Of a stretch of DNA of 64,000 bases, positions 17,853 to 23,520 are shown piece after piece. A program made the translations under genes and the position numbers. This DNA comes from an uncultured Planctomycetaceae bacterium (lineage in GTDB: Bacteria > Planctomycetota > Planctomycetia > Planctomycetales > Planctomycetaceae): the NCBI GenBank assembly GCA_963813715.1, contig CAWFAK010000009.1:544001-608000 (forward strand). Reading direction: 5' to 3'. Position 1 is the first letter of the stretch. Each line of letters starts with the position of its first letter. The notes under the pieces are model-generated. The model was not told where the DNA came from. It saw nothing but the letters and a program-made list of their open reading frames with translations, and did no database searches.

Positions 17853-20842
17853 TCATTTCAATCCGTCGAGTGCGGCGCGGGCGTCGGCGTTTTTGCCGTT
17901 GCGTCCGAGGATCGCCGTCAAACGCGTGCGCGCCTCGGGGACGCGACCGCCGGCCGCGAGCGCCTTGGCGAAAGCCAGTTCCAAGTCGTCGTCCTTCGGC
18001 TTGAGATCGACCGCGGCCTCGAACTCCGGCAGCGCTTGTTTGACTTGTTTCGCACCCAGATACGCCAGTCCCAGGTCGCGGTGGATTTCCGCGTCGAGCA
18101 CGTCGACATACAGCGCCTGCTTGGCCAGGCCGATCGCGTCCGCAAATCGTTCTTGCTTAAGCGCCAGCTCGGCGAGCCGTTTGCGCGGGGCCGCGTCGTC
18201 GGGGGCCAGCTCGCACAAATGCACGAGCGCTTCGGCCAGCCGCTTCTCGTCACCCAGCAGCCCGTAGGCCGCCGCCAACCCGCGGACGAAATCGGGCTGC
18301 CAGGGGTAATATTTCGCACCCAGCTCGCACAGCTCGGCCGCTTGCTGCGGCTTGTCATCGAGGAGTCTGAGCTTGGCGAGCGTCATCAGGATCTCGCCGT
18401 GCGGGGCCGCGCGATTGAGCAGCGGCTCCAGCCGGGCGACCGCCGCACCGTACTGCTGATCGTCGGCATCCAATCGCGACAGCACGAGCGCCGCCCACGG
18501 CTGCCTGGCATCGAGGGTCAGCGCGTCTTTGGCCGTCTTCTTTGCCAGACCGGCATTCCCTTTCTCCAAAAGCGCCCAGGCGTACGCGCCGGCGATCGCG
18601 GCGTCCTTGGGATGCGCTTCGACCTGCTTCTCCAGTTCCGAAACGCTGCCGGACGGCGGCCGTTCGGCAGCGTGCAGGCCGGCCACTTTCGGTTTGAGGA
18701 AGTCGCGATAGCCGCGCTCGAACTCCGCCACATCGACGCCGAAAACTTTCTTGATCGCTGCCGGCGTCGGCAGGTTATCGTGATACGCGGCCAGCATTTT
18801 CTGCAACGAACCGGCGCCGCCGCGCTCGATCATGTATTCCGCGTAGAGGCGGCTCTGACAATAGGCGAACTGCCAATCGTCCGAATTCGACGGTCGCTCG
18901 AAGCCACGATCGAGCGTCTCCAGCGTCCGCAGTTGGCCGGGGTAGCGCCGGGCCAGGAGTTCCATCCATTGCGACGGCGGTGGATAGCCTTCGTTGAGCA
19001 CGGCCAGGGCCTCGGTGAACCAGTGCGGGATATTAAAGCCCGACTGCTGCACGGTGATCACATGCACGAATTCGTGTCGCAGCACGCGGGCCCAGTTGTA
19101 GGGCACGGAGGCCGACGTCGGGGACGCCAGCGCCACCATCACGCCCGTCGATGCGCCGATGGTTTGGATCCAGGGCAAGCCGACCATCCGCGCTGAACCA
19201 CTCATGCCCGGACCTCCCTTCGGAATTGTTGAAAACCTCGATGTGGGTCCGTTGCGGCGGCGCGTAGCCAAAACGCTCCACGAGCTGCGGATAAATCTGT
19301 TCGAGGTATTCGGCGATGTAGCCACCCAGCAGCTTGTCGAGCTTGGAATCGACGCGTATCACGAAATGCTCGGTCGAAATGGCCTGGTAACCATCGAGCA
19401 GCTTGAGCACCTTGCGGAAATTGCTCACCCGCGTGTGATACGGATCGGCCTGGAAGGCGTCATCGAGAATCTTGCGGGCCTGATCGGTGCGGCCGACACG
19501 CATCAGCAACATGCCCAGCGATGTTTTCGCCTCCGGCAATTGGGGAGCGAGGGCCATCGCCCGGCGGTAGCAAACCTCGGCCACGTCGAAGCGGCGGCGG
19601 GACTCGAGCAGCTCGCCGAGCGCGGTCAAAAAGACGCCCGGTTTGGGATCGGTTGCCGAGACTTCGGCCCAGACTTTGAGAAAGCGGGACGAGCTCGTCC
19701 GCGGTTTTCGTTTCGCTGCCGATCGGAGGTTTGGCCAGCCACGACTCGAGCGACGATCGCGAGGGAAGACCGTCGGTCAGCAGGCGCAGGCGGCCACGCG
19801 AGCGAGCACGTCTTCGTCGCGGGGATTGACGGCCAGTGCGGCATTCGCGGCGGCCAGCGCCGCCTCGATGCGTCCCGGACAAAAAATAGACGTCGGCTTT
19901 GAGCTGCAGGGCTGCGGGAAGCCGCGGGTTGATCCGCAGGGCCTCGGTCGCCTTCGCCTCGGCTTTGTCGAACTCGTTATTGTCGAGTGCGTCCTGGCCC
20001 AACAGCACGATCGCCTCGGCCGCACGGGGATTGATCGCCAGCGCCTGCTCCAACTCAGGGACGGCCTGCTCGCGGTTGTATTTCTCCAACAGGAGCGACC
20101 CGGAGATCAGATGGGCTTCCCAGGCGTTGGCATCGTTCTTGAGGGCGTCCGGGCAGAGCGTGTTGACCACGAAGTGGAAGATTTGGGTGTTGTGATTCCA
20201 GCGGGCGTACTGCACCGAGCCGCGGGCCACCACGATCAGCGTGGCCGCGTCTTCCGGCTGTCGCGAATTGTACAATCGAATGAACCAGCGGTAGCCGGCG
20301 TTGGCTTCCCGAAAGCGACCGGTCTGGGCATAAACGTCGGCGAGCACCAGCCGCGCCGTCGCGTTATCGGACGAGGCGGTGATGGCCGCCTCGGCGGTCT
20401 TCTCAGCATCGGCCAAACGGCCCCGCGCAAGCTGCAGCTCGGCCAGCCGCGCCAAGAGCTTCGGCTCCGCTGAGTTCTGTTTGCTGGCGTCGACGACGAG
20501 CTTTTCCGCCTCTTCCCAAGCCCCCACCGCCTCCCTGGCACGGCTGAGGCCGATGGCCACAGCGACCGGATCGGCCTTGGCGGCAGCCGCCTTATGAAAA
20601 ACCTCTTCGGCCTCCTCGTAACGCCCTTTCGCCAGATGCGTCTGCGCCTTGGCCAGCAACTCTTTCGGCGTATTTGCGGACGAGGCTGATAGGGGCAGCG
20701 TGACGGCGAAGATCAGCAACAAGAAGGCCGATCGAGCGATCCGCCAGTGAGCGATTCGGCAGTGAACGATCCGCGGTGAACTGGGGCTGTCGGATGGAGC
20801 CTCTCGGCACGTCGGACAGCTTGCGAGTGGACGTCGGCACAT
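17853..20842 (-). CDS. Secreted TPR-repeat protein with a peptidase MA-like (gluzincin) domain; four apparent frameshifts (about 19875, 19785, 19690, 19195); start uncertain
   Basis: Many TPR units (ALAINPRAAEA, ALRINPRLPAA, AMALAPQLPEA); HEFVH plus WFTEALA zinc motif; segments join colinearly across ORFs 19460..20842, 19777..20025, 19033..19629 and 17853..19325. Confidence 0.85.
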
Positions 20843-20989
20843 CGGTGGAAAGCCGGTCGTCGTGGCGCTTGGGCGATTCGACAGCGCGGGCGACGCGTTG
20901 CTCCGGGACCTGTTGCCCGCACGGGCGCGCGGACAGTTCGAGGCGGCGACGTTCGCCGCGTCTACCCTCCAGTATATGCGGCGACGCGC

Positions 20990-21031
20990 AAGAAAAAACC
21001 GCGAGTCTTTGTGGGACCCGCGGTTTTTCTT
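20990..21031 (-). terminator. Intrinsic terminator (minus-strand preferred, possibly bidirectional)
   Basis: Minus strand reads CCGCGGGUC-loop-GACUCGCGG-UUUUUUCUU; the one non-Watson-Crick position is G-U on minus and A-C on plus. Confidence 0.8.
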
Positions 21032-21034
21032 ATC

Positions 21035-21296
21035 AAACCTCTCAGTGTTGGCGACGGTGGAGTCGCTTTGAGAAGGGCGCGGATCGGGTAGTGACTAGCA
21101 CTCACCCTTTTGTGATCCGGGCCCACAGTTTGGGTTTGGCACCTCCGTCGGAACGATGCGAGAGGCTTGTTCTCGGCCCTGCCGTGTGGCCCGCGTGGCG
21201 GCCAGTTCTGATGCAGTCTCTGTCGTGTGTCGATCGATGCCGGGCAGGGCTTCAGTTCTGTCTCTCGCCGGGCCCTCTTGCGAGTGGCCGCGGCGA
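21035..21296 (-). ncRNA. Candidate structured non-coding RNA (unassigned family)
   Basis: Nested stems 21035-43/21160-68, 21052-57/21145-50, 21075-85/21114-24, 21086-93/21099-107, 21176-83/21243-50, 21265-77/21282-96 (GCAA tetraloop on minus); no credible ORF; terminator follows directly. Confidence 0.55.
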
Positions 21297-21412
21297 TCGG
21301 CTGCTTATTGATCGGCACAGGCAAGCCCGCTTCGTCGATCAAAAATCCAGAATTCGTGCGCCGAATTCGCGCGTTTTCGTCCGCTCGGGCGAGACATTCG
21401 GCGATTTGGCCG

Positions 21413-22633
21413 CTAGACCCGCGGCAACGCATCGTCTCTCTCTGACCAACGCCGCGACCAACGGCGATAAAAGTAGACCCCAATCCACGCCAGCAGCGGA
21501 AATACCCTCAAGAACTGGCCTAGCCCAGCATCGTTGGGCCGGGTAAAGGTCCAGGTCGCCGCCAGATCGTGGTCCGGCAAGTTCCAGATCCTAACCGTTC
21601 CGTCGTTTGAGCCGGCGGCCACCCGCCGACCATCGGGACTGAACTGCACCGTCTCGACCGCCGGCACGTCGAAATGGACTTCCGTCTTTTTTCGTTGCGG
21701 CAAATCCCACAGCGTAAGCCCGTCGAAGCGACCGCTTGCGAGCTGTTTCCCGTCGGGCGAAACGGCGATCGCCAGCACCAGCCGCTCGGGCAGCACGGCG
21801 ACGACCTTGCGACTTTGCAGGTCGACGATTTGGATCGTTTTATCGTTGGCGGCCACGAGCGTCTTTCCGTCAGGCAGCCAGGCGAGCGCCGTGACGTTCG
21901 GGGCCAGATCGCCGTTGTCGGGCGGCTCGGGAGCTTCGATCCGCTCCAGCAGTTTTCCAGCAGCCGAGTCCCACACTTCGAGGTCAAGCGTGCCCAATCC
22001 GCCGACGGCAAATCGCGAACCGTCGGGCGCGGGAACCAGCGTCTGCACGTTCGGGCCCACTTGCAGCCCGCGCAGCGGCGCATCGGAACCGAATTCGCCC
22101 AAATAGACGAACTGACGAAGCGCCAGCGCGTAACGATTGCCTTGCGACAGCGAGGCCAGAGTGCGGAAATGCAGGCGCTCCGATTTTGGATTCGACAGTA
22201 GCCGCCGTTGGGCCGTGTCCCAAAAAAACAACCCGCCATCGAAGCCCGCCGAGAGCAGCTGGCGACCATCGGCCGAGAATGCGACGGATTGTCCGATCAA
22301 CACTTCCGGCAGGATGTTGAAGATGCCCGGACGACCGACGCGTCCCAGAACGGTCGCCCGTTCCAGGTCGGTGACCGAGGCCAGCACGGCCGTATGAAAC
22401 AGGTCGGAAAGATACCAACGCTCGCGGAGCGCGCGAAACCGGCCGCTATAGACGCCGATCGCCAACTGTTTGCCGTTCGGAGAGAAGGCCAGCCCGCTCA
22501 CCGACTGCCACGTCGACCCGCGGTTTTGCGGCCAGAGAAGGAACGCCAGGCTGACGACCAAGCCCACCGCCATCGCCGACTGCCCGGGCGAGAGGTCCCT
22601 TAACCTATTTTTCACGGCCGCGAGGAGATCCAC
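21413..22633 (-). CDS. WD40-repeat beta-propeller protein with N- and C-terminal TM segments
   Basis: LAFSPNGKQLA, VAFSADGRQLLSAGFDGGLFFWD, VQFSPDGRRVAAGSNDGTVRIWN; start approximate (GTG 22633). Confidence 0.88.
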   Translation of the reverse strand: MDLLAAVKNRLRDLSPGQSAMAVGLVVSLAFLLWPQNRGSTWQSVSGLAFSPNGKQLAIGVYSGRFRALRERWYLSDLFHTAVLASVTDLERATVLGRVGRPGIFNILPEVLIGQSVAFSADGRQLLSAGFDGGLFFWDTAQRRLLSNPKSERLHFRTLASLSQGNRYALALRQFVYLGEFGSDAPLRGLQVGPNVQTLVPAPDGSRFAVGGLGTLDLEVWDSAAGKLLERIEAPEPPDNGDLAPNVTALAWLPDGKTLVAANDKTIQIVDLQSRKVVAVLPERLVLAIAVSPDGKQLASGRFDGLTLWDLPQRKKTEVHFDVPAVETVQFSPDGRRVAAGSNDGTVRIWNLPDHDLAATWTFTRPNDAGLGQFLRVFPLLAWIGVYFYRRWSRRWSERDDALPRV

Positions 22634-22896
22634 TGCGATGCCTCGGCACGCCAGCAGGGTTTTCTTAGACTCTACCCACGGTACACTAAGGGCGCCCGCG
22701 AGGATATTTCGGGCAGCTGCCAGTGGAGCCAGCGCCAGCGGAGCCAGCCAATGGGGGCCAGCAGGAACTGACGGAGGGCTGCCGAGGCGTGCCGTGAAAC
22801 CGTCCACGGGCTGCGAGGGAGTTCCACCTCGGCTGGTGAAACCGTTCACAAAAGCGCCGCGCCGGACCGCGGTGTGATTTCGGACGCGGATCGACG

Positions 22897-23172
22897 ATGG
22901 TGAACAAGAAATCAGACGAACTGGCAGTCGGAGCCAACGTCCGCGTGAAGGCGGGCACAACGATGCCTGAATTCCCGGACGTCGCCTGCGGTGGCTGGAC
23001 AGGCAAGATCGTCGAAACGTCGGGCAAGAAGCCCAATACCAAGTACTTCGTCGAATGGGACGAAGCCACTCTGGGAAGCATGCCGGAGTCGTATCTGAAG
23101 CTCTGCGAAGCGCAGGGACTCTATCATCGCATGGCCTGCCTCGACGGCTCGGTCCTTGAACCCGCGGGCTGA
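22897..23172 (+). CDS. Small hypothetical protein, probable SH3/KOW-like beta barrel
   Basis: VGANVRVK...GWTGKIVE...YFVEWD pattern; codon usage matches neighbouring genes. Confidence 0.65.
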   Translation: MVNKKSDELAVGANVRVKAGTTMPEFPDVACGGWTGKIVETSGKKPNTKYFVEWDEATLGSMPESYLKLCEAQGLYHRMACLDGSVLEPAG

Positions 23173-23520
23173 CGTCCCCGCTTGATTGCGGCGTCCGGCG
23201 TCTATTGCAATTCGTGCCGAGCGCGTTTTCTTCGGACTCGCTGCGCACCCAGATCCTGCCGCACCGACTCTTCCGGCACGTTGACCTCCATTGAGGGTAT
23301 TTCCCAGCTCTCAACGAACCGGTCATTCCAATCTTCACGAACAAATCACTTTTGCGGCGGCGCCTTTTGCGCCGTTTATCCGTGAGAACCGACGCAAGCT
23401 GCAGCAGGGCGGTCAGGAACGAGTCACCGCTGCAAGTTCACAACGCCGACAGAATAAAGAAGCCTTATATTCTCAGCGGCAAGCCATACCTTCTGGCAAA
23501 CCAGAACGTCTGAGGGATGT

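Follow-up and report, generated by a model that had tools for sequence, protein, structure and literature searches.

The closest described system is 6S RNA, a single-copy, irregular rod built around an internal loop. In 6S RNA of the Escherichia coli type, synthesis of a product RNA unwinds helix P2, whose 3' strand then pairs with the 3' bubble strand as a hairpin, and truncated 6S-1 RNAs with short arms still function (excerpts of PMC8876501). Precedents for a further polymerase-binding rod RNA, accompanying canonical 6S or replacing it, are 6S-2 of Bacillus subtilis and Ms1 of Actinobacteria (excerpts of PMC4793215 and PMC9130861). Small RNAs under the control of the flagellar sigma factor are represented by UhpU, MotR, FliX and FlgO, which depend on sigma-28 in E. 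coli (excerpt of PMC10578931). For Thermogutta, no 6S RNA was found, and a 2014 screen cited in the same excerpt reportedly found none in Pirellula and Rhodopirellula (PMC5673643).

Here we describe an RNA gene from a 64-kb stretch of planctomycetal DNA (the window). Its product is a new structured small RNA family, confined to Pirellulales-type Planctomycetia, of which it is the first described member. The reality of the gene, its strand, its boundaries (with a predicted start), its fold, its distribution and two competing pairings are established. In the literature covered by our search, no description of the RNA was found. To our knowledge, almost no regulatory RNAs have been described from Planctomycetia. 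Pirellulales have a budding, dimorphic life style, and an apparently abundant single-copy RNA that occurs in many families and combines a well-determined fold with a distinctive promoter and a conserved two-state element offers an entry point into RNA-based regulation in this group, possibly in the control of the cell cycle or of motility.

A stand-alone RNA gene

The ncRNA gene extends from 21301 to 20990 on the minus strand and stands alone. All elements of the RNA are housed in a 570-nt intergenic gap on this strand, flanked upstream by a WD40-repeat gene (21413-23344, minus strand) and downstream by a TPR-repeat gene (19460-20842, minus strand), which follows 147 nt past the terminator. 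The elements listed in the initial annotation were all located at their given coordinates or a few bases away. The stretch is present in a single copy in its own genome. The initial annotation had made its candidate dependent on a folding energy better than that of shuffled controls, and the fold is indeed beyond chance: the minimum free energy of the 336 nt is -136.9 kcal/mol, whereas 100 dinucleotide-shuffled versions average -108.1 +/- 5.1 kcal/mol (z -5.6). When folded as the plus strand, the same 336 nt reach a z of -4.6. The RNA is assigned to the minus strand because G-U pairs are frequent in the alignment (for example, 22/80 at one pair of the closing stem P1) and because the opposite-strand scores of the covariance model R1, described below, are low (at most 29.3 bits versus 127). 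A coding reading was rejected, since the lengths of the core are spread evenly over the three mod-3 classes (32/25/23).

Comparison of 37 loci revealed that the flanking genes vary among genera, and the RNA is therefore not a leader. The largest common cluster of downstream genes comprises 6 loci. The neighbour met most often encodes a xylose-isomerase-like TIM-barrel protein and is located upstream, mostly in divergent orientation, at 13 of the 37 loci; the upstream gene is divergent in 11 loci. Downstream genes in other genera, named from their translations by eye, include CstA-like and MATE-like genes as well as genes on the opposite strand. With variable neighbours and with RNA contigs confined to the gene (see below), the earlier proposal of an independent minus-strand RNA gene, equipped with a promoter-like box and a terminator, is upheld.

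Family and distribution

The initial annotation could not match the RNA to a known family. In agreement, a scan of the 64-kb window with the 4227 models of Rfam 15 gave no match at gathering score, and in E-value mode the region 20600-21700 yielded only three sub-threshold matches, all of them to the terminator hairpin. The RNA is not the SRP RNA of the source genome (G000), as the RF00169 match is located elsewhere (G000:C8:324774-324870, 39.5 bits). Weinberg's Rhodopirellula-1 motif was also rejected; it has a different sequence in the excerpted supplement text of PMC2864571.

BLAST detects the stretch in 17 of 41 relatives. Outside the genus only query positions 170-333 are kept, and the core was delimited on this basis as 21169-21032 on the minus strand. 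This conserved segment of 138 nt defines the family. Two covariance models were built: R1 from 17 cores, using only helices supported by RNAalifold, and the broader R2 from 80 sequences. R1 scores the core of the window at 159.2 bits. Within the taxonomic family it detects the RNA in 113/151 genomes and 71/92 genera, nearly always as one full-length copy; a second draw of family genomes gave 123/151. Across the class, R1 matches 68/151 genomes: 33/35 in the window's own family (f1), 17/19 in f3, 5/5 in f8, 3/3 each in f11 and f15, and 1/1 in each of four further families. It gave no match in f4 (0/35), f5 (0/30), f6 (0/5) and f14 (0/5) of the class, nor in the 144 genomes from other families of the phylum. 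R2 matches 71/151 genomes of the class, including 19/19 in f3. The R1 model can be converted directly into a family entry.

Five nearly complete f1 genomes from five genera (G013, G014, G019, G023 and G056) gave no match with R1 and a best E-value of 0.08 with R2, which points to lineage-specific loss or strong divergence. These five genomes, without detectable RNA, still encode FliA. When a single genome of each species was searched for the exact pattern, 94 stretches were found; all 80 of them for which titles were listed come from Planctomycetota MAGs, many named Pirellulales or Pirellula.

Architecture of the conserved core

The core forms a rod with several covarying helices, for which pairs were counted in 80 sequences aligned to the model. 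P1, CAAGCCUCUC / GAGAGGUUUG (21169-21160 with 21043-21034, minus strand), closes the rod; each of its 10 pairs has two-sided changes, with 94.1% of the cells paired (n = 80). P3, GGGCCCGGAUC / GAUCCGCGCCC (21124-21114 with 21085-21075, minus strand), consists of 4+6 pairs, with double changes at 10/10 pairs and 97-98% of the cells paired (n = 80). A variant in a metatranscriptome contig, C21075 to U, yields a G-U pair in this helix. The apical hairpin P4 (21107-21086, minus strand) has double changes at 6/6 pairs, with 97.0% of the cells paired (n = 80). The covariation observed in P1, P3 and P4 was reached by 0/500 shuffles, and shifting the partners by 1-3 columns decreases the paired cells to 38-46%. 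The closing stem, P3 and the apical hairpin all lie where they had been drawn from the single sequence, and P1, P3 and P4 covary strongly.

A scan of column pairs outside the model structure revealed two additional pairs, P2b (UG / CA, 21127-21126 with 21070-21069, minus strand). Columns 60-186 (U21127-A21069) contain CG in 54 sequences, UA in 12, GC in 10 and other combinations in 4, while columns 61-185 (G21126-C21070) contain GC in 69, AU in 10 and another combination in 1; no one-sided changes are found at either position. Because of the P2b pairs, the loop in the source genome measures approximately 14 nt on the 5' side and 6 nt on the 3' side, not 17 x 12. The bubble originally annotated in the rod thus exists as an internal loop, but it is smaller and contains two covarying pairs. 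Its description as A/C-rich does not extend to the family, as only in the genus is the 5' strand of the loop composed in this way. Approximately 50 near-invariant positions are retained in many families, and invariant nucleotides occur in loops and bulges beside the covarying helices.

Genus-specific 5' domain and terminator

The core is preceded by a 5' domain (21170..21301, minus strand; predicted fold). These approximately 130 nt are conserved within the genus only; in other genera the spacer before the core differs in both length and sequence, being shorter or longer. The domain contains a GCAA-capped (GNRA) hairpin (21295-21266, minus strand), which was found at the place and on the strand given in the initial annotation. 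Reading of the alignment by eye shows the GNRA loop of this first hairpin in 6/7 closest relatives. The long-range stem of 8 bp proposed for this region, GCCCUGCC/GGCAGGGC, is likewise present (21250-21243 with 21183-21176, minus strand), encloses smaller hairpins and is kept as CCCUGCC/GGCAGGG in 11/11 sequences of the genus. A repeat of CAGAACTG had been noted as well. Both copies (21203-10 and 21253-60) are present, but the repeat is not conserved even in the 96%-identical relative, and 31/100 window shuffles contain at least two copies.

At its 3' end the RNA carries an intrinsic terminator (20990..21028, minus strand), in which a 9-pair core stem inside a longer hairpin is followed by UUUUUUCUU; the U-tailed terminator of the earlier description was located here. 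A hairpin with a U-run is found directly 3' of the core in 68/79 homologues. The terminator stem covaries on its own and does not overlap with the switch element described below.

Two competing pairings of segment Z

Within the rod, the G-rich, Shine-Dalgarno-like segment X, CGACGGAGG (21150-21142, minus strand), forms the 5' strand of helix P2 and lies opposite the C-rich segment Z, CCACCGUCG (21060-21052, minus strand). Z can alternatively pair with segment Y in the hairpin GCGAC-UCCACC-GUCGC (21066-21051, minus strand). The pairings with X, in the rod, and with Y, in the hairpin, are mutually exclusive. The three segments, X (CG.C.GAGG), Y (GCGAC) and Z (..CC.CC-GUCGC), are nearly invariant, whereas the other helices drift. 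This conservation may arise because Z must fit two partners.

The alternative hairpin, which had been proposed from the sequence of the window as exclusive with a helix of the rod, is conserved. It is predicted in 77/80 homologues, 94.3% of the cells are paired, and compensatory changes are present in two clades. One clade has GCGGC/GCCGC. In the other, which has GCAGU/ACUGC, three pairs differ in both partners; its rows had been misplaced by the model alignment. The rare changes are coordinated across X, Y and Z: the GCAGU/ACUGC clade also has ..CCAGAGG in X, and X34 is G in 2/3 rows with GCGGC/GCCGC, so that X-Z is preserved too.

Support is good for the Y-Z hairpin and modest for the rod helix X-Z. 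At the X-Z pair 36-210, 58 sequences have GC and 9 have AU, and 11 double changes were counted (n = 80). Position 34-216 is unpaired in 34/80, and just 21/80 sequences have an X-Z duplex that outperforms 95% of those formed with shuffled X. When each pairing was enforced in 71 sequences, E(rod) - E(hairpin) was +1.2 +/- 3.1 kcal/mol. The two forms lie within 2 kcal/mol of each other in 33/71 sequences, and the hairpin is predicted to be more stable in 49/71.

Promoter

The initial annotation had pointed to GCCGATCA, resembling a sigma-28 -10 element, just upstream of the RNA, and the box is present there (21309..21316, minus strand), with GCCGAT as its conserved part. Within 250 nt upstream of the core, GCCGAT is found on the sense strand at 58/80 loci, compared with 7/80 on the antisense strand and a mean of 5.0 in shuffles; for the longer TGCCGAT the counts are 42/80 versus 2/80. 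The distance from the GCCGAT box to the core is 27-200 nt (median 100). An A/T-rich block (AUUUUU, 21341..21346, minus strand) precedes the G of GCCGAT by 25-30 nt. It looks like an UP element, and across 56 aligned promoter regions the A+T fraction at -30 to -25 is 0.7-0.9. The consensus of the sigma-28 -10 element, GCCGATAA, sits at -15 to -8 (excerpt of PMC12784957), which places the predicted transcript start at approximately 21301. The -35 sequence TAAA, located in sigma-28 promoters some 15-16 nt before the -10 element, is not conserved at the promoter of the new RNA.

FliA is encoded in the source genome (255.7 bits), and the flagellin gene of this genome has a textbook sigma-28 promoter, TAAA-N16-GCCGATAG. 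This flagellin promoter (G000:C9:409631-409658) is located approximately 295 nt before the start of the gene, implying a long 5' leader. In five other genomes, [GT]CCGAT occurs within 500 nt upstream of 4/8 flagellin matches, which is about chance level. The presence of FliA does not separate genomes with the RNA (5/5) from those without it (5/5). For a regulon search, the genome was screened with a weight matrix based on 54 promoter regions; the RNA's own promoter obtained the top score (33.6). Comparison of 18 ORFs downstream of high-scoring sites with Pfam left 16 without a family, the other two being one ferredoxin-like and one ParB-like protein, and no regulon emerged. From the promoter sequences we infer that a sigma-28-type factor may drive the RNA.

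Expression in metatranscriptomes

Part of the stretch is contained in 24 listed sequencing runs, 22 of which are metatranscriptomes, and the contigs of four of the 24 (X1, X8, X9 and X10) were compared with the locus. X8 and X9 are soil metatranscriptomes from different studies and are very small (12.9 and 57.2 million letters). In each of them a single contig matches, and it does not extend beyond the RNA; it spans 244 nt (21039-21282) in X8 and 267 nt (21034-21300) in X9. Both contigs cover much of the 5' domain and end short of both flanking genes. In run X1 the flanks are covered too, with a break at 21088-21113, while run X10 covers only 20700-20920, in the downstream gene. The contig ends roughly coincide with the predicted start and the end of P1, which is a weak hint, as contigs cannot prove ends or strand.

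Relation to 6S RNA and other small RNAs

A canonical 6S RNA is encoded elsewhere in the source genome (C16:57869-58062), where RF00013 scores 47.6 bits (gathering score 46.4 bits). RF00013 gave no match on 20600-21700 even at E<=10, and R1 with filters off gave none at the 6S positions of 13 canonical 6S loci. We also built a lineage-specific 6S model, R3, from 9 canonical 6S RNAs; in the source genome it reports only the 6S locus on C16. Among 101 genomes of the class, 6S RNA is detected in 72 by RF00013 and in 86 by R3 (f1 21/22, f4 23/23, f5 20/21, f8 3/4, f3 3/13, f11 0/2). The new RNA is not the 6S RNA, because canonical 6S is found elsewhere in the same genomes, and the two coexist in most lineages. 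A replacement of 6S by the new RNA was considered for f8, f10, f12 and f15, which RF00013 missed, and rejected, as R3 finds canonical 6S there; f3 and f11 alone remain largely without a match. Five f3/f11-type genomes lacking a 6S match gave 0 matches with both RF00013 and R3. BLAST with one f3 6S RNA found 5/41 genomes and missed one known 6S, so that a true absence is not demonstrated.

The resemblance to 6S RNA is one of shape and switch topology only. Both are single-copy, irregular rods around an internal loop, and in both the 3' strand of the loop-adjacent helix can refold with the 3' strand of the loop, here as the predicted Y-Z hairpin. A closing stem of the form ..CCUCU../..AGAGGUU.. 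is shared with canonical 6S of the same genomes (4 6S loci compared), with no other similarity detectable. The sequence CAGGGACCAAU in the 6S RNA of the source genome resembles the f3 form of X; homology on this ground was rejected, as the sequence is not kept in other 6S genes. The core comprises 138 nt, compared with about 185-200 in 6S RNA, and has shorter arms. Its asymmetric loop (~14 x 6 nt in the source genome) does not reach the size of that in 6S RNA and is in part base-paired. The promoters differ as well, with GCCGAT here versus TTGnnn-N17-TAnnnT at 4 canonical 6S genes (read by eye).

Other described RNAs differ in further respects. The 6S model recognizes B. subtilis 6S-2, whereas no Rfam family matched the new RNA. 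Ms1 is found in a phylum without 6S and binds the core enzyme (excerpt of PMC9130861); here, in contrast, canonical 6S coexists. With UhpU, MotR, FliX and FlgO, which the flagellar sigma factor drives, the RNA has in common a GCCGAT.A box resembling the sigma-28 -10 element. Unlike these UTR-derived, Hfq-dependent and base-pairing RNAs, however, it is encoded by a separate gene and has a large conserved fold.

Possible modes of action

The reading that we tentatively prefer, although it is still doubtful, is that the RNA serves as a 6S-type decoy of RNA polymerase or of another protein. In this reading, the RNA acts in trans. It is transcribed from the promoter with the sigma-28-type -10 box (GCCGAT.A) and the A/T-rich block, and transcription ends at the intrinsic terminator. 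The core is an irregular rod (P1, P2, P2b, P3 and P4) around the asymmetric internal loop, in which Z can pair either with X, resulting in the rod, or with the loop strand Y, resulting in a three-way junction with a hairpin. A protein would bind the rod form, most plausibly the RNA polymerase holoenzyme. Z would be freed by an event affecting strand X, for which 6S RNAs use a short product RNA made on the template; it would then snap into the Y-Z hairpin and release the partner. Any protein that binds and whatever sets off the switch are, like the sigma factor, inferred. In favour of a 6S-type decoy are the topology of the refolding and the precedent of functional 6S-1 RNAs with short arms. 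Several observations speak against it. With canonical 6S present, the new RNA is not needed as 'the' 6S; moreover, its loop is small, asymmetric and interrupted by P2b, its arms are short, the hairpin form is predicted to be the more stable one in most sequences, support for the rod helix X-Z is modest, and there is no similarity to 6S at the level of the models. If RNA polymerase were bound, the RNA would constitute an independent invention of the 6S principle, and if not, a new RNA-protein or RNA-RNA system.

In a more specific and distinctly unlikely form of the decoy reading, a second, unrelated 6S-type RNA made from a sigma-28-like promoter would trap RNA polymerase in the motile swarmer stage of budding Pirellulales, to be released through the X/Y/Z switch by a templated short RNA. 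It could then be the sole 6S-like RNA where canonical 6S is undetected (f3 10/13, f11 2/2). Such a role would also be relevant to the reports that found no 6S in Pirellula, Rhodopirellula and Thermogutta (excerpt of PMC5673643).

A base-pairing small RNA, which we consider somewhat unlikely, would target mRNAs with an anti-Shine-Dalgarno seed, namely the conserved C-rich hairpin loop of Y-Z (UCCACC, adjoined by the CU-rich UUCUC). In the rod form this seed would be covered by X (GGAGG), acting as an internal mimic, and the sigma-28-type promoter would tie the RNA to the motile stage. The RNA has its own promoter box and U-tailed terminator, the hairpin loop retains CC or UCC in nearly all 80 sequences, X contains an invariant GAGG, and sigma-28-dependent small RNAs exist in E. 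coli (excerpt of PMC10578931). However, four covarying helices and ~50 near-invariant nucleotides are unusual for a seed-type small RNA, and there is only a single C-rich loop. The position of the invariant nucleotides, in loops and bulges beside covarying helices, is what could be expected of a protein-binding surface, and the RNA may instead be a part or a decoy of a protein other than polymerase, such as an RNA-binding regulator of the motile stage, contacted through the conserved internal loops and bulges (UCU, CCA and the bulged A in P4). The single-copy state, the wide distribution and the assembly of RNA contigs from very small metatranscriptomes are in line with this reading. We nevertheless regard it as unlikely: no conserved neighbour suggests a partner, the commonest being found in 13/37 loci only, and by eye the alignment contains no more than one or two GGA motifs, in contrast to sponges of the CsrB type.

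Readings in which the RNA senses a signal or controls an adjacent gene fare less well. Conserved nucleotides cluster at the three-way junction of the hairpin form and the two folds are nearly isoenergetic, as might be the case for a ligand or temperature sensor, that is, a riboswitch-like aptamer on a trans-acting transcript, in which the signal would shift the balance between X-Z and Y-Z. Such a sensor is very unlikely, given that no gene family is constant downstream, the terminator does not overlap the switch and no Rfam riboswitch model matched. The initial annotation had also offered an attenuating leader of the TPR gene. In the genus, this gene is indeed on the same strand, 147 nt past the terminator. 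Downstream genes nevertheless differ among genera, the upstream gene being divergent in 11 loci, and the terminator stem covaries freely, located 5-12 nt after P1. There is neither a constant downstream family nor an expression platform overlapping a sensor, as in cis-regulatory leaders, and reading of the alignment by eye revealed no antiterminator pairing that competes with the terminator. The RNA contigs of X8 and X9 end before both genes, and the upstream gene owns a terminator-like hairpin. Together, these findings make it exceedingly improbable that the RNA serves the TPR gene as a leader or attenuator, or the WD40 gene as a 3' element.

Sequences flanking the gene

Upstream, the WD40 gene has a terminator-like hairpin (GAATTCGGCGCACGAATTC), predicted at 21350-21368 on the minus strand. 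Its T-run is the same A/T block that lies 25-30 nt upstream of the GCCGAT box of the RNA. On the other side of the gene, a TGCGC motif (~20980-20989, minus strand) is located at a fixed distance past the U-run, 36-47 nt after the core. It is found at 27/79 loci from several families, compared with 8/79 in the next 75 nt.
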